From IMG/VR virus record IMGVR_UViG_3300045988_090152, positions 1-29,263 of that record: a stretch of 29,263 nucleotides of DNA; one strand, given 5' to 3'. Of this stretch, positions 1 to 24,884 are shown in pieces. Below the pieces are notes generated by a model. It had not been told where the DNA came from. It did not search any database and was given only the letters and a program-made list of their open reading frames with translations. Position numbers and translations under genes: made by a program. Source of the stretch: a virus. Every line of letters begins with the position of its first letter. Within the stretch, counting starts at the first letter, position 1.

Positions 1-254
1 CCATCATCAAATATAATGACTAATATAGAGTTACATTTACTAAGTATATCAAACTTATCCCTATTTATAATTGTAGTTGGATATTTATCGGATTTAAATC
101 TTCTCCTTTTAACTTCAATTATATAATCTATATTATTCCAAGTAAATGTTCCATCATATCTGGAATAATCGTCTTTACATCATTCTATTTCTATATTATA
201 TTTATCTTTAAATAGATTCTTTATAAAGACTAAGCTTCTTATATCTGTTTTCAT
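1..254 (-). CDS. hypothetical protein, possible PD-(D/E)xK-type nuclease (C-terminus beyond window edge)
   Basis: ATG 254-252 overlaps the TAA of the upstream gene (TAATG). The frame is open to position 1 only if TGA at 180-182 is sense. Own translation: MKTDIRSLVFIKNLFKDKYNIEIE-W-CKDDYSRYDGTFTWNNIDYIIEVKRRRFKSDKYPTTIINRDKFDILSK... The D...E-V-K spacing resembles a PD-(D/E)xK core (motif level only). Not in the ORF track. Confidence 0.45.
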
Positions 255-493
255 TATCTTACATTATGAATTTTTAAGGTTACATCACAATACTGTTCAT
301 ATAATTCAGATACTTCTGAACTTCCAGGATTATGCCACATTACAGAGTCTAATTTATGCTGGAGTTCTGCCTGTTCTAATCTAAGCTCAAATGTTTTAGT
401 TTGGTAGTCTCCATAAGCATTATATACTCTAATACCAGCTATTCCCATTAAAATAATCGTTGCAATAATTGCATATTTAAATATATTTTTCAT
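254..493 (-). CDS. small membrane-anchored protein, function unknown
   Basis: 79-aa track ORF, ATG 493-491, TAA 254-256. N-terminal hydrophobic helix (YAIIATIILMGIAGI). First gene behind the leftward promoter at 539-570. Confidence 0.6.
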   Translation of the reverse strand: MKNIFKYAIIATIILMGIAGIRVYNAYGDYQTKTFELRLEQAELQHKLDSVMWHNPGSSEVSELYEQYCDVTLKIHNVR

Positions 494-897: not shown

Positions 898-2616
898 ATG
901 AAAACTTATTTAAATAATTTAATCAATGAATTACCTACTAACTGCTTATTTGACAAAGGTAAAGTAGGATGTGGTGGAACTTCAATGGCTTTAGAGTGTG
1001 ATAAGCCTTATGTTATATGTGTTCCATTTGTAAGTTTAGTTGAGAATAAACTTGCTCAATATCCTAATGAAAGACGTAAAGAGCCTATTTTTGGAGTTTA
1101 TCAAGGTGTTACTAAGACAGATATTGAAGCTTATATATCTTCAGTTAAATGCCCTAAAATCATTGTTACTTATAATTCTCTTTATAAAGTAATAGAAGCA
1201 GTAAATCCTAAAGATTATAGCCTATTAATTGATGAATATCATATACTATTTAATCAATATAGTCTTAGAAGAGATGCAATTAAAGATGTATTAAAGACAT
1301 ATAGCTTATTTAAAGAATATACATTTATGACTGCTACTCCCTTAGAAGATGAATTTGTTTTAGATGAATTGTCTAAATTGCCATTAGTAAGACAAGAATG
1401 GGATGATGTTATTGAGACTAAAGTTCAGACTGTTAAATGCAAGAATGTAGAAGCTTCCACAATTAAGCTTATAAATGGATTTTTAAGTGGAAATGTTGAA
1501 GGTAATGCTTATATATTTGTTAACTCTGTTGACTTTATAAAGAATCTTATTTTAAAGGCTAAACTTACAGCAGATAACACAAGAGTAGTATATTCTAAGA
1601 ATAATAGAACTAAACTGCCAATTCAGAATTCTTCAGTAAATGATGAACCTAAGAAGATTAATTTATTGACTTCTACTGTATTTGAAGGTTCTGATATTTA
1701 TGATGAAAATGGAAGAATTATTGTAGTTAGTGATTCCTCTAAAGCTCAGACTCTTTTAGATATATCTACTTCAATTCAACAGATTGCTGGTAGAATTAGA
1801 AATAGTAAATATTTAAATTGGATTACTCATCTTTATTCAGCCACAAGATATGCAGAGATAGATTATGATACATTTAAAAATAATACATTAAAGAATATTG
1901 AAGAAACAAAGATTGCAGTTGAATCATACAATCAGCTTCCAGAAGTAGCTCGTAAGAAGATTACAGACTTTACAAGTGACACATATATTCAAATTAATGA
2001 GGATTATACCTTTGAATTTGACCCAAATATGGCTAAAGTAGATATATTCAATTTTAAGGTTGCAAGAGGTTTATACTCTGTAAGAGTTAATCTTACTAAT
2101 GAATATCTAAAGAATGGCTTTATAAAGGTTGCTGAATGTGAAGATAAATCTATTAAGATAGACCTTGAAGCTCCTAGTAAGTCATTTCAGGAGCTTATTA
2201 AAGATGTAAGAGCTGAATGGGAAACTAAATTTAAAGTTGGAACTCCTATATTAAATGAAGCTCTAATTAAATATCCTTGGTTAAATGATGCAATTAATAA
2301 ACTGGGATTTGAAAGAATGGCAACTTTGGGTTATTGCATTAAAGATATTAAAGAGGAACTTGTTAAAATATCAGATAAAAATATGCCAAATAAGGTTGCC
2401 AAATTACTTACAAGAGATATTCAGAATGGTATGTTCTACAATTTAGCTTTATTAAAGAATAGGATTGCTGATGTATATAAGACTTTAGGTATAAAGAAAA
2501 CTGCAAAGGCAACAGATATTGAACACTATTTTGAAGTTAGAAAATCAACTAAAACTGAAAAGGATGTTAGAAGCAAAGGATACATTATTATTAGACCAAG
2601 ATTCATATTTAAATAG
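898..2616 (+). CDS. SF2 (DExH-type) helicase-like protein with atypical Walker A
   Basis: 572-aa uninterrupted ORF with TAG stop. Motifs read from the translation: GKVGCGGTS (P-loop-like but lacking the Lys), LLIDEYH (motif II, DExH), FMTATP (motif III), QIAGRIRN (motif VI, QxxGRxxR). All four Trp are TGG and there is no TGA. Confidence 0.6.
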   Translation: MKTYLNNLINELPTNCLFDKGKVGCGGTSMALECDKPYVICVPFVSLVENKLAQYPNERRKEPIFGVYQGVTKTDIEAYISSVKCPKIIVTYNSLYKVIEAVNPKDYSLLIDEYHILFNQYSLRRDAIKDVLKTYSLFKEYTFMTATPLEDEFVLDELSKLPLVRQEWDDVIETKVQTVKCKNVEASTIKLINGFLSGNVEGNAYIFVNSVDFIKNLILKAKLTADNTRVVYSKNNRTKLPIQNSSVNDEPKKINLLTSTVFEGSDIYDENGRIIVVSDSSKAQTLLDISTSIQQIAGRIRNSKYLNWITHLYSATRYAEIDYDTFKNNTLKNIEETKIAVESYNQLPEVARKKITDFTSDTYIQINEDYTFEFDPNMAKVDIFNFKVARGLYSVRVNLTNEYLKNGFIKVAECEDKSIKIDLEAPSKSFQELIKDVRAEWETKFKVGTPILNEALIKYPWLNDAINKLGFERMATLGYCIKDIKEELVKISDKNMPNKVAKLLTRDIQNGMFYNLALLKNRIADVYKTLGIKKTAKATDIEHYFEVRKSTKTEKDVRSKGYIIIRPRFIFK

Positions 2617-2776
2617 AATTGCGGATATTAAAGAAACTCTTAAAAAGTCAGAAGATACTATTAAAGAGTTTGATAAGTGAATGAATGAATTTAAAGAGAA
2701 TTCTAAGAAATTAGGAGATATTATAGATAGAGTATTAGCACAAAGAGATTTTACATTTATTTCAAAATTTGATTAA
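2564..2776 (+). CDS. hypothetical coiled-coil mini-protein (70 aa if TGA 2678-2680 is Trp)
   Basis: Hand-translated: MLEAKDTLLLDQDSYLNRIADIKETLKKSEDTIKEFDK-W-MNEFKENSKKLGDIIDRVLAQRDFTFISKFD, TAA 2774-2776. Overlaps the helicase 3' end by 53 nt in another frame. TTG starts further upstream are possible. Alternatively two tiny ORFs split at TGA-ATG. Confidence 0.3.
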
Positions 2777-2778
2777 TT

Positions 2779-2913
2779 ATGGATGATTTTTTATTTAAAA
2801 AGCTTAAAGAACTAGAATATAGAATAGTTCAATTAGAAAACCAAAACAAAGGGTTAGTTTGGGAAGAAGTAGAAGAAAAACCAGAGATTCCTAACGCAAC
2901 ATATATTGACTAA
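2779..2913 (+). CDS. hypothetical mini-protein (44 aa)
   Basis: ATG 2779, MDDFLFKKLKELEYRIVQLENQNKGLVWEEVEEKPEIPNATYID, TAA 2911-2913. Starts 2 nt after the previous stop. Below the track length cut-off. Confidence 0.35.
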   Translation: MDDFLFKKLKELEYRIVQLENQNKGLVWEEVEEKPEIPNATYID

Positions 2914-2914
2914 T

Positions 2915-3055
2915 ATGAAGTACTTTACATATAAATTATGCTTAAATGGAATAAATTACGTTTATGTAATTCCTGAAAATAGTAAATTCTTAGTAGATTT
3001 ACAAACTGGAGAATTAATACCTAAAGATGAGAAATTATTTGAGATAATGGAATAA
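2915..3055 (+). CDS. hypothetical mini-protein (46 aa)
   Basis: ATG 2915 lies 1 nt after the previous TAA. MKYFTYKLCLNGINYVYVIPENSKFLVDLQTGELIPKDEKLFEIME, TAA 3053-3055, directly followed by the terminator. Confidence 0.35.
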   Translation: MKYFTYKLCLNGINYVYVIPENSKFLVDLQTGELIPKDEKLFEIME

Positions 3056-3057
3056 AC

Positions 3058-3095
3058 AAAAAGGAGGGTTATTTGCCCTCCTTTTCTTTTTTATT
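3058..3095. terminator. bidirectional rho-independent terminator between convergent units
   Basis: 10-bp stem AAAAGGAGGG (3059-3068) / CCCTCCTTTT (3076-3085), 7-nt loop, with T-runs following on both strands. The minus-strand HNH stop codon (3069-3071) lies in the loop. Confidence 0.75.
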
Positions 3096-3407
3096 AAACC
3101 TCTGATAATTACTTACTGCCGAATGTATAGCTTTATGACATACTGAACATAATGTTATCAAATCTTCCAAATGGTCTTGCTCCTCATATAAATTATCATA
3201 CCTCTTATGATGTACCGATAATGACCTGTTTCCGCCTTCCTCAACGCACCAATTACAAGTTTGGCAGTGGTAGTTATCTCGCAACAAAACTTGCTCTCTA
3301 ATCACCTTAAATTCCTTTGAGCGGATATATCTCTGGTACTTTAAATATTCTTCACTTCTTACTTTCCTCTTAGTCTTATGAAGCAATTTACTTGATTTGG
3401 AATCCAT
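3069..3407 (-). CDS. HNH endonuclease
   Basis: 112-aa ORF with CQTCNWC ... SVHHKRYDN ... LCSVCHKAIH (Cys pairs flanking an HH...N...H core). Basic N-terminus. Last gene of the minus-strand unit. Confidence 0.8.
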   Translation of the reverse strand: MDSKSSKLLHKTKRKVRSEEYLKYQRYIRSKEFKVIREQVLLRDNYHCQTCNWCVEEGGNRSLSVHHKRYDNLYEEQDHLEDLITLCSVCHKAIHSAVSNYQRFNKKEKEGK

Positions 3408-3409
3408 AA

Positions 3410-3862
3410 TTATATAATAGTAAATTTCTGTCGTCTTTGCATCCCGTCTTTATTCTTTAATCCCAAGTGTATTCAACTTGCTATACCATTCTTAGGCTTT
3501 TCATATATCAACTGGTCTCAATTTAATTCTTCGATAGCTTCAGCAATCCAACTTTGGAATACTTTCATATTACCATTAATTGGAGATATATCTGCTGCAT
3601 ACCCTGTTAAATGAGCAGAAGTTGAAGATCCTCCTACTGCTTTATTAAGCTCCTTATTTCTAAAACCAGAGGAAATCCTGATGCCTGCGTTACCAAGCTG
3701 ATTGTCATCACAATACTTTGCCCATCTCTCTCTTATTGGGTCTAAAAGCTTCTCGACCAACTCTATCAGGTGCTCTGTTATACTCTCATCTGGAGTGTTA
3801 TCTATATGCTTAATTGAAGCAGTATCAGATCTTGTTAATTCTTCGAGTGTGAAATACTTCAT
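3410..3862 (-). CDS. endolysin, M15-family (Peptidase_M15_3/VanY-like) zinc cell-wall peptidase, 150 aa with two TGA-Trp
   Basis: The track ORF (3518-3862) carries SGFRNKELNKAVGGSSTSAHLTGYAADI (H-x6-D). Reading through TGA 3518-3520 and 3473-3475 adds W-DQLIYEKPKNGIAS-W-IHLGLKNKDGMQRRQKFTII, then TAA 3410-3412, 2 nt before the HNH ATG. This supplies the expected C-terminal His. Confidence 0.8.
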
Positions 3863-4023
3863 TATTTAAGTATATCTTTAATCATAACATATCTATAAAA
3901 TAGATGTGAAGCCACACCTATTACAAGTAATACTACAGTAATCCAAAAAGGAATTACTTTGATTAGTAAACATATCAGCAGAATAATAACTACTGCAATT
4001 ACATATTTTAACCAATATTTCAT
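3862..4023 (-). CDS. holin-like protein (53 aa, two predicted TM helices)
   Basis: Hand-translated MKYWLKYVIAVVIILLICLLIKVIPFWITVVLLVIGVASHLFYRYVMIKDILK. The TAA overlaps the endolysin ATG (TAATG). Not in the track (too short). Confidence 0.55.
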   Translation of the reverse strand: MKYWLKYVIAVVIILLICLLIKVIPFWITVVLLVIGVASHLFYRYVMIKDILK

Positions 4024-4024
4024 A

Positions 4025-4681
4025 TTATATTTTATTTAAAATTATACTTATCTGTATTCCAGCTCTTCTTAGATGTACTCAAGTATCATAAGGCATAGGT
4101 GTATCACAGAATGATAAACCTAAAATGCCAATATCTTTATCCTCAGTCTTTAAATAAAATACTGCTATTTCATTCACTCTGTTGGATTTAAATGCATAAT
4201 ATAATCTTGGATCATCTGCTTCTAAACTATCTATATTACCAAACCATCCATCATTCTTAGAAAACTCTATAATTGAAGTATAGTCAGATAACAGGAAGTC
4301 TTTATAATGGCTACTTACAGATCTTATTCCTGGTTTTACTTCCTCTGCATTCATTACTCCATAAGTAAATGGAAGTCCTCCTAATCCAGTAGTTCCATTA
4401 TGATATTCAATAACCCAAGCTCTATCAGCATTGGTACTTTGAAGCAATTCTTTAAGCTTATATTTAATCTTCAAAGTTGCTTCATTTCTTGCAATAGTTT
4501 TAGAATTGTGAGTTTGTTCAATATAGGTTACAACCTTATTATAAACAATAGAGGGATTAAGTGTAATAACCATTACATAGGATATAAATATTAATCCAAT
4601 CCCTGCTTTAAATATCTTTAGTAATCCATATTTATCTACTCATTCTAATACCTTTCCAAACCAGTTTAATTTATTTTCCAT
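4025..4681 (-). CDS. membrane-anchored protein of the lysis cassette, function unknown (218 aa, two TGA-Trp)
   Basis: ATG 4681-4679 overlaps the upstream TAA (TAATG). N-terminus MENKLNWFGKVLE-W-VDKYGLLKIFKAGIGLIFISYVMVITL... with TGA at 4640-4642. The track ORF ends at TGA 4079-4081. Read-through adds WVHLRRAGIQISIILNKI and TAA 4025-4027, 1 nt before the holin ATG. Confidence 0.65.
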
Positions 4682-22679: not shown

Positions 22680-24884
22680 TTATTTTCTATATTTATCTTG
22701 AGAACTTTGTACTTCTATAGTATAATAAAACATATTTTTACCCTGATTACTATATGTCTTATACTCACAACTATTATTAGTAATTATTACAGGAATAATC
22801 TTATTATCCTCCAGATTATGTAAATATACCATAGTAGATTCTAATAAATGGTGCATCTTTGATGCTTGAGTATTTGTAAGATAATTAGTATATAAAGTCC
22901 ATTCTGGAACTATAGTGTTTAAATACTTATTTTTACTAAACTGAGAAGTGGTATTTAATACCTTTCTTACATAAGTCTGAGATTCAATTTGATCCGTTTG
23001 TTTAACATTACCTTGTACTAATAAACTATCCCATCCTCCATAAGCATTAGTATAATATAATACATAATTCTTATTAGTAGTATCAATCTGATAATTAATA
23101 GTTGTAGTAAAAGAGCCAGATTCAACAAATCCTATTTCATATTTACTCTTGCATTCCAAAAGTAAATTACCTAAAGGTTCTGCATAAGTATAACCATTAA
23201 TTCCTTGTCTTAATGTAATATCTACAGTAGTTGCTACTCCTTCAGGTGTAGTATAACGTCTATTAAGCACACCTTCACCAGTTGGGAATATCCAACTACA
23301 TAATACATACTGTCTTGAATCAACTAAAGTGTCAATAGGATCACTTAAGAAATAAGGCTTAGTTAAATCTGTATCTTTATAAGACCAATCATTAAAGAAT
23401 GTTACAGGCTTTTCACTACCGCTTGAAGTTATTAATGTAAAGGTTTTTAAATAGTTAGGTATAATTTCTGTCTTTCCAAAAGATGGAAATATAATGCCGT
23501 TATCTAAAAAGTCTTCAGATACATCATTAAGTAAAAATTGTACTCCTGTAGTATCAGGATATTTATAAGCTTTACCAGCATAAATAGTATCTCCTGCATA
23601 ATCAAGATGATATTCTATAAAATCATTTAAAGTTTCCTCTTCTCATATATAATCTTTCCATATTGGAGATATATCTGCTTTAACCTCTTGTACAATATTA
23701 AATGAAGTATTTATAACACTAGAGCCATTTTTTACTACTGTAACTCCGACTGTTGCTTTTCTTGAAGCATTACCTGTATTTTCTGTAGCATCAAAATTGA
23801 TACTTACAATATTCATACCTCCTGGAGTTCCTCTTTCTATTACTAACTCCATTTTACTTAACCAAGTCTGAGCATCTGCTGGAATTGCAAATACTACATC
23901 ATCTAAATTATCTGAGCCTGTACCATCTATCTTATATCTTCCTGCTGTATATCCAATACTAACACTGGACTTTAAAGATAAAGAAGTAGCTAACTTAGTA
24001 ATTGGAACTGTAGCATTTAATGTATATCCTCCAGAAGTTGTTGCAGTAACTAATGCAGCATAATTTTTAATACTGGTTGTAGCATTATCAGGAAAGCTAA
24101 TATTAAAGGTATTTAATGCAGTATTTTTTCCTATTCCAATACTTCCTGGACAATTAATATCAAATTCAGTAATTGCTTCATCTGTTACTGTAGTTGACAA
24201 TTGAAATTGTCCTGTAGTATTAGATGCAGCTCCATAAGTTCCAGATGATGGATTAACTATTAACTTCAAATCTTCTGGAATATCACTCTTTTCAATAGTA
24301 AAGCCATAACTATAAGAAATAAACTTATTAGTTTCATAATAAGCTCCTAATTGAATAGTTCCAGTAAGATTAGTATTTCATTGAGTATTAGCATCTACTG
24401 TAATCTTAAACTTAATAGAGCAGGAATCCCATTCTAATACCTCAACACTTACTAAAGCAGTAGCATTTACTACATCACAAGTTCATTTAATAATATCTGT
24501 TCTACTTAATATATATTCAACAGTATAAGTACCTCCAGTATTGGGCACTGTTATACTGCCATTTGCAGGATAATATCCAGGGGCTTTACTATGAAGATAA
24601 ACTGGCATAGTATCTTCCAATAAAGCAGTAGTATGTCCTCTTGGATAGAATCTGAATATTGTAGAAGAGTCTGTTGTAATCGTTGAGGGATTTCTAAAGT
24701 TAATAGTACAACCACTTGTACTTGCATTAGAAATAGTAACATCTAATGGACCCTCTTCTGAATAGTCATCTCCTCATAACCAATAATCATATACTCCTGT
24801 AAGACCCCATCCTGGATTTTCCCATTTAACAGGATATGTTCCTGTACTTCTTGGTATTCCTAATTTACTTGGTATAAATGTCAT
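22680..24884 (-). CDS. large virion protein with BACON/Ig-like central domain (734 aa, four TGA-Trp)
   Basis: ATG 24884 (MTFIPSKLGIPRSTGTYPVKWENPGWGLTGVYDYWL-W-GDDY...). TGA at 24774, 24483, 24378 and 23643. Joins track ORFs 23643-24269 and 22680-23270 in frame. The segment ...QTWLSKMELVIERGTPGGMNIVSINFDATENTGNASRKATVGVTVVKNGSS...IVQE resembles the BACON signature (W.L ... N.g..sR.a.v.v ... Q). Confidence 0.65.

Follow-up and report, generated by a model that had tools for sequence, protein, structure and literature searches.

Recoded Gut Phages

The reassignment of stop codons has been described for several clades of gut phages using genetic code 4 or code 15, including the small Garnet and Amethyst phages of approximately 34 kb (Borges et al., bioRxiv 10.1101/2021.08.26.457843). 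In phages of standard-code hosts, 26-71% of the genes were found to carry a recoded codon, with a bias towards lysis genes in crAss-like and Agate phages; suppressors were detected in only 35% of the code-4 genomes, the rest being put down to missed detection (Borges et al., bioRxiv 10.1101/2021.08.26.457843). The idea that recoding could serve for timing, together with the presence of recoded stops in lysis genes, was thus already published in the same work.

Here we analyse a stretch of viral DNA of 29,263 nt (IMGVR_UViG_3300045988_090152, hereafter the window), which is a complete circular genome of ~29.26 kb with a GC content of 31%. The virus is probably a tailed phage of virulent appearance, having a long minus-strand transcription unit. 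An earlier note on this DNA had drawn attention to an endolysin whose last metal ligand lies behind two TGA codons, and had proposed that competence for lysis would depend on the capacity to decode TGA being established. What it reported on the genes and the protein has stood up well; its proposal of lysis timing has not, and we consider it likely that the late operon of a code-4 phage ends here in an ordinary set of lysis genes.

The Lysis End of the Late Operon

The late operon ends, on the minus strand, with the genes for a 218-aa membrane protein (4681-4025), a 53-aa holin-like protein (4023-3862), an endolysin of the Peptidase M15A family (3862-3410) and an HNH endonuclease (3407-3069). 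The tight packing of the first three genes, which had been noticed earlier, is correct to the base: a single nucleotide separates the 218-aa ORF from the 53-aa ORF, the latter is joined to the endolysin start by a TAATG overlap, and the TAA of the endolysin (3412-3410) precedes the ATG of the HNH gene at 3407. This last gene of the operon, which matches PHROG 119 and 144, is swapped for a NUMOD1-type gene in two relatives, L021 and L022, the latter assembled from the gut sample ZEEV15 (SAMEA3665146). A bidirectional intrinsic terminator (3058-3086), formed by an 11-bp stem with five G-C pairs and flanked by T-runs on both strands, marks the end of both the late operon and the plus-strand unit that converges on it.

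The 53-aa protein is called holin-like by its position and topology, since two hydrophobic segments are visible in its translation; it has no Pfam match, and its similarity to PHROG 4929, a family without assigned function, is weak (E = 0.006). Its gene contains no TGA, as previously remarked, and this extends to its relatives, for 10 distinct orthologues have 19 TGG and 0 TGA codons. The 218-aa protein has an N-terminal membrane anchor and, again as previously read, two TGAs in its gene, at codons 14 (4642-4640) and 201 (4081-4079). Its W201 is encoded by TGA in 25 of 25 relatives while the other four Trp sites are polymorphic for TGA and TGG. Homologues of this protein occur only in the lineage of ~30-kb phages (14 clusters, none annotated), and its AF2 model is unusable (pLDDT 47). 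No spanin was recognised, despite the probably Gram-negative host; a 79-aa protein encoded at 254-493, which has a membrane segment as well as a region resembling a coiled coil, is a possible candidate.

An Intact Endolysin with Two In-Frame TGA Codons

The assignment of the endolysin to the small M15 peptidases, which the earlier note had suggested and proposed to verify by HMM alignment, is borne out by Pfam PF08291 (Peptidase_M15_3), whose score of 52.4 bits lies well above the cut-off of 23.2 (E = 6.5e-14; residues 2-104 aligned with profile positions 1-86 of 108), and by PHROG 894 (endolysin), which covers residues 1-145 (E = 4e-29). The full-length protein of 150 aa is modelled by AF2 with a pLDDT of 95.8. 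Foldseek recognises in this model the LAS fold, its first match being 1LBU (E = 1.5e-5), the Zn D-Ala-D-Ala carboxypeptidase of Streptomyces albus that serves as structural reference for that fold, followed by VanY, LdcB, ChiX and hedgehog N-terminal domains; in BFVD, proteins labelled 'Peptidase M15A' match with E = 1e-11 and a TM-score of up to 0.80.

With respect to the catalytic residues, the H-x6-D motif of zinc ligands (SAHLTGYAAD, 3590-3613) comprises H84 (3613-3611) and D91 (3592-3590), which are invariant in 121 of 121 sequences and whose counterparts in 1LBU are, by alignment, residues 154 and 161. The C-terminal His, H132 (3469-3467), does lie only beyond both TGA codons, as claimed; it is conserved in all 80 homologues that reach this column and sits on the β-strand 131-134 of the AF2 model. 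We infer from the LAS fold that H132 is the third zinc ligand, even if the alignment obtained by searching PDB sequences with a profile was confined to the H-x6-D region and paired H132 with no residue of 1LBU. The first 114 residues would not hold a complete catalytic centre, for the invariant E121, W130 and H132 are all encoded after the codon-115 TGA, and three of the five β-strands in the model (117-120, 131-134 and 145-148) follow codon 114. No homologue was found that naturally ends at residue 114. A ribosome terminating at TGA would consequently yield a dead fragment of 114 aa: having lost three strands and the putative third ligand, this product is almost certainly inactive, as had been surmised.

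The two TGA codons are in the endolysin frame, at codons 115 (3520-3518) and 130 (3475-3473), and their columns are aromatic as the earlier note had stated. Read through, the protein has EELN-W-DQLIYEK around codon 115, with N114 just before it, and NGIAS-W-IHLGLK around codon 130, with S129 just before it. Column 115 contains F in 97, W in 16 and Y in 7 of 120 homologues, whereas column 130, within the W-[IV]-H motif, contains W in all of the 80 homologues that extend so far. The other 40 end exactly at column 129, which indicates that they are standard-code gene calls cut at the codon-130 TGA. Gene callers that follow the standard code truncate the endolysin at 114, 127 or 129 residues, and the truncated pieces are labelled 'putative chitinase' or 'YcbK' in some sources; some caution is warranted, therefore, with the annotation of such proteins.

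The comparison of these positions among relatives, which had also been suggested, gives a divided answer. At codon 130, TGA is present in 25 of 25 related low-GC contigs, while standard-code relatives have TGG; at codon 115, instead, only 10 of the 25 have TGA and 15 have a Phe codon, TTC or TTT. The TGA of W130 is found even in the low-GC relative with the lowest protein identity (L028, 53%) and with either of two alternative C-terminal modules, and a second recoded lineage (L047) has TGA at both columns, as it does for every Trp codon of its endolysin. Hence W130 is steadier as TGA than the average Trp site, and selection, rather than mutational stickiness, could account for this. Such constancy of W130 in every low-GC relative and with both C-terminal modules is a point that counts against our preferred reading of an ordinary lysis region. 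The conservation that continues in frame after the TGA codons indicates that the continuation is real coding sequence and not due to chance. We thus regard the endolysin as a full-length, intact LAS-fold zinc peptidase of 150 aa, a likely reading under which both TGAs would be decoded as Trp, at an aromatic column (115) and at an invariant Trp column (130); its zinc binding and muralytic activity are predicted.

TGA as a Minority Codon for Tryptophan across the Genome

At the level of codon and frame comparisons, the genome as a whole demonstrates the use of TGA for Trp, as a minority codon (genetic code 4). TGA accounts for 24 of the 101 Trp codons, spread over 15 of 31 genes, and is never used as terminator, stop codons being TAA in 26 and TAG in 4 cases. 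Under code 4, ORFs of at least 100 aa increase from 8,554 to 11,424 aa in total and their coverage from 0.72 to 0.84. Among the 25 relatives, more than 25 Trp sites have TGA in some genomes and TGG in others. The base following TGA is G in 13 of 24 instances and C in just one, so there is no sign of the classically leaky UGA-C context for read-through. TGA is strongly under-used, since its share of Trp codons is ~23% compared with ~71% for the A-ending members of the other R-ending pairs (p = 3e-22), and its decoding therefore looks costly.

The genes containing TGA include those for TerL, the tape measure protein and fibre-like proteins, as well as g145, HTH81 and memb108, with which the long operon begins; those for MCP, portal, protease and scaffold have none within the window. 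Across the lineage, the TGA fraction of Trp codons is 0.43 for the endolysin, 0.42 for TerL and 0.47 for memb108, compared with 0.30 for all genes, and rises to 0.91 for both HTH81 and g841 and to 1.00 for g317. That the endolysin exceeds the mean is a second observation on the side opposed to an ordinary lysis region. Besides W130, other sites are fixed as TGA: W199 of TerL (13/13), W161 of g841 (11/11), W134 of tail734 (10/10) and W29 of memb108 (12/12).

The plus-strand unit (898-3055) contains no TGA in any relative. It consists of three small ORFs and the only large gene of that strand (898-2616), the 572-aa product of which resembles SF2 helicases by DExH-like motifs read by eye in its translation (LLIDEYH, MTATP and QIAGRIRN), although it has no match in PHROG, Pfam or PDB sequences. 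Its four Trp sites give 76 site-by-relative cells, of which 73 are TGG, 3 are TAT and none is TGA. A TGA-free plus-strand unit fits an early/late partition of the code, a third observation that does not favour our reading.

Such a partition is the essence of the model of Borges et al., according to which a phage infecting a standard-code host would express the TGA-free plus-strand unit first, after which a factor would render UGA readable; the endolysin would then be one of many gated genes. Of the alternatives to our reading this is the most serious, and we consider it possible, though clearly the less probable account. It agrees with the helicase-like gene, with the disfavour of TGA, with its lack in the genes for MCP, portal, protease and scaffold, with the proportion of genes carrying it (48%, within the published range), and also with the hints on the host and the different codes of two members of the clade that we discuss below. 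However, the complete genome encodes neither a suppressor tRNA nor a release factor or TrpRS, TGA decoding is already required by g145, HTH81 and memb108, the first genes of the long operon, a mere four Trp sites make the helicase result a weak one, and the switch factor is purely hypothetical.

How TGA Is Decoded, and in Which Host

No tRNA gene was found by ARAGORN in the complete genome, nor by Rfam, whether with gathering thresholds or with a limit of E <= 1; the intergenic DNA (1,484 nt) contains no UCA anticodon stem-loop, and those parts of 29 related loci that were fetched likewise have no tRNA. The output of relaxed ARAGORN searches (-ps80, -mt) was noise, and its sole intronless UCA candidate, c[24556-24630], was rejected on account of a mismatched acceptor stem, the lack of T- and D-loop consensus, a non-cloverleaf MFE fold and a position inside coding sequence. 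Among those window proteins that were scanned with PHROGs, some of them also with Pfam, none matches RF1 or TrpRS.

Clues to the host point weakly to standard-code Bacteroidota, and the host is probably Gram-negative. Relatives of the endolysin are found in Bacteroides and Prevotella phages and those of the portal in Nonlabens and Bacteroides phages, while Shine-Dalgarno motifs are nearly absent (2 of 32 genes). Neither megablast of 25 kb nor tblastn of the major capsid protein produced a match among GenBank phages. When genome contigs were scanned for the capsid protein, the sole matches were two binned phage contigs of 48% MCP identity, one TAG-recoded (L104) and the other with the standard code (L103); neither is integrated and neither has an endolysin homologue, and hence the scan gave no firm host.

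This combination creates a puzzle: How would a phage of probably standard-code Bacteroidota read UGA as Trp with no machinery of its own? The later literature offers no explanation for recoded phages lacking suppressors. A speculative answer, to which we attach a rather low probability, is an unrecognised route of reassignment: either a small early protein neutralising RF2, so that the tRNA-Trp(CCA) of the host would read UGA, or a suppressor provided by the host or a helper. If a factor neutralising RF2 existed, the plus-strand unit, being free of TGA, would be the most natural place for its gene.

Another possibility is that the host is a walled bacterium with native code 4, in which UGA would always mean Trp and nothing would be gated. 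A complete genome devoid of decoding machinery, relatives whose fetched parts have no tRNA, the disuse of TGA as stop and its presence in operon-head genes would all be natural in such a host. Nevertheless we deem it improbable: neutral TGA should dominate at 31% GC, yet it constitutes only 23% of the Trp codons, the clues indicate Bacteroidota and one relative in the clade is TAG-recoded. To our knowledge, code-4 bacteria such as Mycoplasmatales, Entomoplasmatales and some insect endosymbionts either have no peptidoglycan or do not dwell in the gut. The phage has retained a highly conserved peptidoglycan peptidase.

The Endolysin and the Timing of Lysis

The proposal of the earlier note may be sharpened as follows: TGA would be selectively kept upstream of the codon for the endolysin's last metal ligand, thereby restricting muralytic activity to the peak of decoding capacity. 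The constancy of W130 in 25 of 25 relatives with either C-terminal module speaks for it, as do the two TGAs of lineage L047 and the bias of lysis genes in other recoded phages. Against it, the dependence on TGA is common to at least 14 other genes and thus represents a genome-wide property, not a switch specific for lysis. The lysis cassette is not enriched, having TGA at 4 of 11 Trp codons versus 20 of 90 elsewhere (Fisher p = 0.29), and at least five sites outside lysis genes are equally fixed. The holin-like gene, normally the setter of lysis timing, has no TGA at any of its 19 Trp codons across relatives, and the complete genome contains no suppressor tRNA or code-switch gene by which decoding would be established later. 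Furthermore, column 115 is Phe in 15 of the 25 relatives, the position is not special in L047 given that all its endolysin Trp codons are TGA, and AT-biased mutation alone would render a TGA 'sticky' once arisen. A dedicated lysis timer consequently seems improbable. As to the notion of a decaying pseudogene or assembly error with TGAs as genuine stops, to which the calls of 129 and 127 aa produced by standard-code callers might lend some appearance, we reject it as vanishingly improbable given the conservation in frame after each TGA, with E121, W130 and H132 invariant, the same TGA in 25 independent assemblies and the confidently modelled full-length fold.

Comparison with Known Systems

Our preferred reading, an ordinary lysis end in a code-4 phage, can finally be placed beside the systems already described. 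The endolysin shares the H-x6-D motif, the C-terminal His and the LAS fold with the Peptidase M15A endolysins of other phages, showing 41-46% identity to those of Bacteroides, Prevotella, Moraxella and Achromobacter phages; it differs from them in having TGA for two of its four Trp residues, while the protein is otherwise ordinary. As in canonical holin-endolysin cassettes, the gene directly upstream of the endolysin overlaps it and encodes a small protein in which two hydrophobic segments are found, the pair stands at the end of the late operon, and the endolysin is cytoplasmic, without a signal sequence; unlike in those cassettes, there is also an upstream 218-aa membrane protein that has no known counterpart.

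In contrast with the recoded gut phages of Borges et al., the genome studied here is demonstrably complete while lacking suppressor tRNA, release factor and TrpRS, and its lysis genes are not preferentially recoded. It resembles those phages in its low GC content, the reading of TGA as Trp and the loss of TGA as terminator, as well as in its recoded structural and lysis genes, its size and its relatives with other codes, and possibly also in having a standard-code host. The endolysin and its recoding constitute, then, a clean and unsurprising example of a published phenomenon. With respect to the ~65% of code-4 phages that have no detectable suppressor, this small and complete genome could make tRNA-free decoding of TGA tractable to experiment.

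The lysis cassette and its endolysin

The lysis cassette lies on the minus strand at 3410-4681, and its gene layout proved on re-reading to be exactly that of the earlier note, including the absence of TGA from the holin-like gene and its double occurrence in the membrane protein upstream. The 218-aa protein encoded first (4681-4025, TGA at codons 14 and 201), which has a hydrophobic anchor at its N-terminus, is separated by a 1-nt gap from a 53-aa holin-like protein with two hydrophobic segments (4023-3862), which is joined by a TAATG overlap to the 150-codon endolysin frame (3862-3410), having TGA at codon 115 (3520-3518) and codon 130 (3475-3473). The endolysin ends with a TAA 2 bases ahead of the ATG of an HNH endonuclease on the same strand (3407-3069; PHROG 119 and 144). 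The 218-aa protein is found in this phage lineage alone (14 clusters) and has a strongly conserved core, NADRAWVIEYHNGT-GLGGLPFTYG, with no recognisable family and no confident fold. In two lineage relatives, L021 and L022, the HNH gene is swapped for a NUMOD1-type gene, and both also have a NUMOD3-type gene that separates portal from DUF6712 and an I-HmuI-like gene that separates the 145-aa gene from the 102-aa gene, none of these three being present in the window; homing endonucleases thus turn over at window 3069-3407 and at L021 7367-7960, 4350-5003 and 11888-12382.

With TGA read as Trp, the 150-aa product scores 52.4 bits against Pfam Peptidase_M15_3 (cut-off 23.2), and its residues 1-145 align to the endolysin family PHROG 894 (E = 4e-29). 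An AlphaFold2 model, built from an alignment of 34 homologues with a 93%-identical relative of the window endolysin as first row, has a mean pLDDT of 95.8 and five strands (61-65, 89-94, 117-120, 131-134 and 145-148). Foldseek places this model closest to the Zn DD-peptidase 1LBU (E = 1.5e-5), followed by VanY, LdcB, ChiX and the hedgehog N-terminal domain, while among predicted viral structures it matches 'Peptidase M15A' proteins with TM-scores up to 0.80. The predicted fold is therefore that of LAS zinc peptidases, and the original identification as a small M15 peptidase stands. H84 and D91, proposed as zinc ligands, are invariant in 120 database homologues and pair in the alignment with 1LBU residues 154 and 161, which we take to be two of the three zinc ligands of that enzyme.

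The earlier note had further claimed that both TGA codons fall on aromatic or Trp positions, with the His acting as third ligand encoded behind them. Throughout the 120 homologues column 115 is aromatic (97 F, 16 W and 7 Y) and D116 varies very little, and the alignment of 34 sequences shows no variation at E121. The 80 homologues long enough to include columns 130 and 132 all have W at the former and H at the latter. The placing of the putative third ligand behind the TGAs is well supported. Another 40 homologues stop precisely at column 129; rather than being naturally short proteins, these are standard-code gene calls that break off at the TGA of codon 130. Because these conserved residues lie beyond codon 114, the catalytic centre is incomplete within 114 residues, and no homologue naturally ends there. 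A 114-aa product would miss three of the five model strands together with the His of column 132, which strongly suggests that it would be inactive, as had been proposed. Public databases label the 127- and 129-aa calls (P0027, P0040, P0050, P0097 and others) 'putative chitinase' or 'YcbK (DUF882 family)', which are annotation artefacts of standard-code gene calling.

TGA as a tryptophan codon

The whole genome is affected by this recoding. Moving from the standard code to code 4, in which TGA is Trp, increases the content of ORFs of at least 100 aa from 8,554 to 11,424 aa and long-ORF coverage of the window from 0.72 to 0.84, leaving a tightly packed gene map. The 30 complete genes stop at TAA (26) or TAG (4), never at TGA. 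Of the 101 Trp codons, 24 are in-frame TGAs, spread over 15 of 31 genes. These include the large terminase subunit and the tape-measure protein (PHROG matches), two large unannotated virion-module proteins, several fibre-like proteins and, at the operon head, the genes for a small HTH protein and for a membrane protein. When all Trp codons of the window were located in 25 related low-GC contigs, taken from IMG/VR and metagenomes, TGA and TGG proved to be swapped at more than 25 sites; portal W37, for example, is TGA in 10 of 24 relatives. Such interchange is direct evidence for the synonymy of TGA and TGG within the lineage. The base after the in-frame TGAs shows a mild preference for G (13/24, with C in 1/24; G follows 34% of TGG codons).

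The best explanation for the endolysin TGAs is, with good probability, that a code-4 phage uses them as ordinary codons for Trp. The TGA at the invariant Trp is retained in both C-terminal modules of the endolysin, which is a mosaic of a near-identical N-terminal part of about 110 residues and one of two diverged modules, ...DQLIYEKPKNGIAS-W-IHLGLKN... or ...DECFIEKSSTSQ-W-VHIALYS... (L016-L018, L026 and L028). W130 is TGA in 25/25 relatives, including those with the alternative module (DECFIEKSSTSQ-W-VHIALYS) and L028, with 53% identity. Equally fixed sites are found in the 218-aa protein (25/25), TerL (13/13), the fibre-like g841 (11/11), the 734-aa protein (10/10) and memb108 (12/12). At 31% GC, mutation bias shields a TGA once it has arisen, and old conversions consequently look conserved. 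Fifteen of 25 relatives simply have Phe at column 115. In the separate and more heavily recoded lineage of L047 (long-ORF coverage 0.39 under code 11 vs 0.86 under code 4), the endolysin (JAEIGA010015759.1, 2120-2530) has TGA for all four of its Trp codons, hence columns 115 and 130 are not special there. Standard-code relatives (GC 0.40-0.55, with contigs reaching 1 Mb in some cases) have TGG at column 130.

The lysis cassette is not special in its use of TGA, which represents 4 of its 11 Trp codons vs 20 of 90 in the other genes (Fisher p = 0.29). When distinct orthologues are compared, the endolysin has a TGA fraction of 0.43 and the 218-aa protein one of 0.35, next to 0.42 for TerL, 0.47 for memb108, 0.91 for both HTH81 and g841, and 1.00 for g317. 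In canonical cassettes it is the holin that sets lysis time, and the holin-like gene has TGA in 0/19. The suggestion that the two endolysin TGAs time lysis thus finds no support beyond the generic idea already published.

Complete genome and transcription units

The last and first bases of the window fall on one same base in seven related contigs (for instance, L008 at 14118, L013 at 9560 and L024 at 14306), and once the ends are overlapped by 1 nt, the 145-aa gene that they split reads in frame again. It follows that the window covers a complete, circularly permuted genome with a circular map of about 29,262 bp. This genome has two convergent transcription units. The plus-strand unit (898-3055) encodes a 572-aa protein with SF2-helicase-like motifs, having no sequence match in PHROG, Pfam or PDB, and then closely spaced ORFs (44 and 46 aa); the long minus-strand unit starts near 493, crosses the junction and ends with the HNH gene. 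They meet between this gene and the plus-strand unit at a strong bidirectional intrinsic terminator (3058-3086) with an 11-bp stem and a T-run on either strand. A 79-aa protein encoded at the head of the minus-strand operon (254-493, minus strand) starts with a membrane segment and has a coiled-coil-like tail; its role may be spanin-like or regulatory.

Decoding of TGA, host and cost

ARAGORN at default settings found no tRNA in the window, and neither did Rfam at gathering thresholds or at E <= 1. A single UCA candidate from relaxed ARAGORN was rejected as unconvincing, lying within coding sequence. The 1,484 nt of intergenic DNA of the window contain no UCA anticodon-type stem-loop, the fetched parts of 29 related loci contain no tRNA, and family scans of window proteins gave no release factor or tRNA synthetase. 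Given that the genome is complete, the absence of tRNA cannot be attributed to a missing fragment. The interest of the case is mechanistic: 15 of 31 genes need UGA to be read as Trp in a 29-kb phage without tRNA.

Regarding the host, cultured relatives of the endolysin (41-46% identity) are phages of Bacteroides, Prevotella, Moraxella and Achromobacter, and those of the portal are phages of Nonlabens and Bacteroides. Shine-Dalgarno motifs are near-absent (2/32 genes vs 9% background) and the leaders of these 32 genes are A-rich (83% A+T), a combination typical of Bacteroidota. The nearest two capsid relatives in genome bins, both with 48% identity, are L103 (CAVEXR010000032.1, GC 0.46), with standard code, and L104 (CAVCAD010000156.1, Bacteroidaceae bin, GC 0.30), which is recoded at TAG: its large genes contain as many as 8 in-frame TAG codons each, its capsid gene none. 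These several weak lines suggest that the host may belong to the Bacteroidota, whose code is the standard one.

TGA is usable yet disfavoured, for its share of Trp codons is 23% vs 60-89% (71% pooled) of A-ending codons in other A/G-ending pairs (p = 3e-22), and the capsid, portal, protease and scaffold genes of the window have none. A decoding that is costly or recently acquired fits these data better than a fully code-4 environment. A genome-wide gate separating early from late code is a rather doubtful alternative: the helicase-like gene is TGA-free in all relatives (TGG in 73 of 76 cells for four Trp sites in 19 relatives, TAT in 3, TGA in 0), which is compatible with an early unit in standard code, even if four sites constitute weak evidence, but the switch of such a gate is hypothetical. 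A native code-4 host, which would read every TGA as Trp, is quite improbable, being hard to reconcile with both the code plasticity of L103 and L104 and the disfavoured status of TGA.

Comparison with recoded gut phages

Borges et al. (bioRxiv 10.1101/2021.08.26.457843) found recoded stops of gut phages concentrated in structural and lysis genes, hypothesised that recoding blocks premature lysis, recorded small recoded clades of about 34 kb and could detect TGA suppressors in no more than 35% of the genomes with code 4. The window phage differs from those phages in having no lysis-gene bias and in constituting a demonstrably complete genome without tRNA; it is otherwise of the kind that these authors described, and its endolysin is an ordinary Peptidase M15A.
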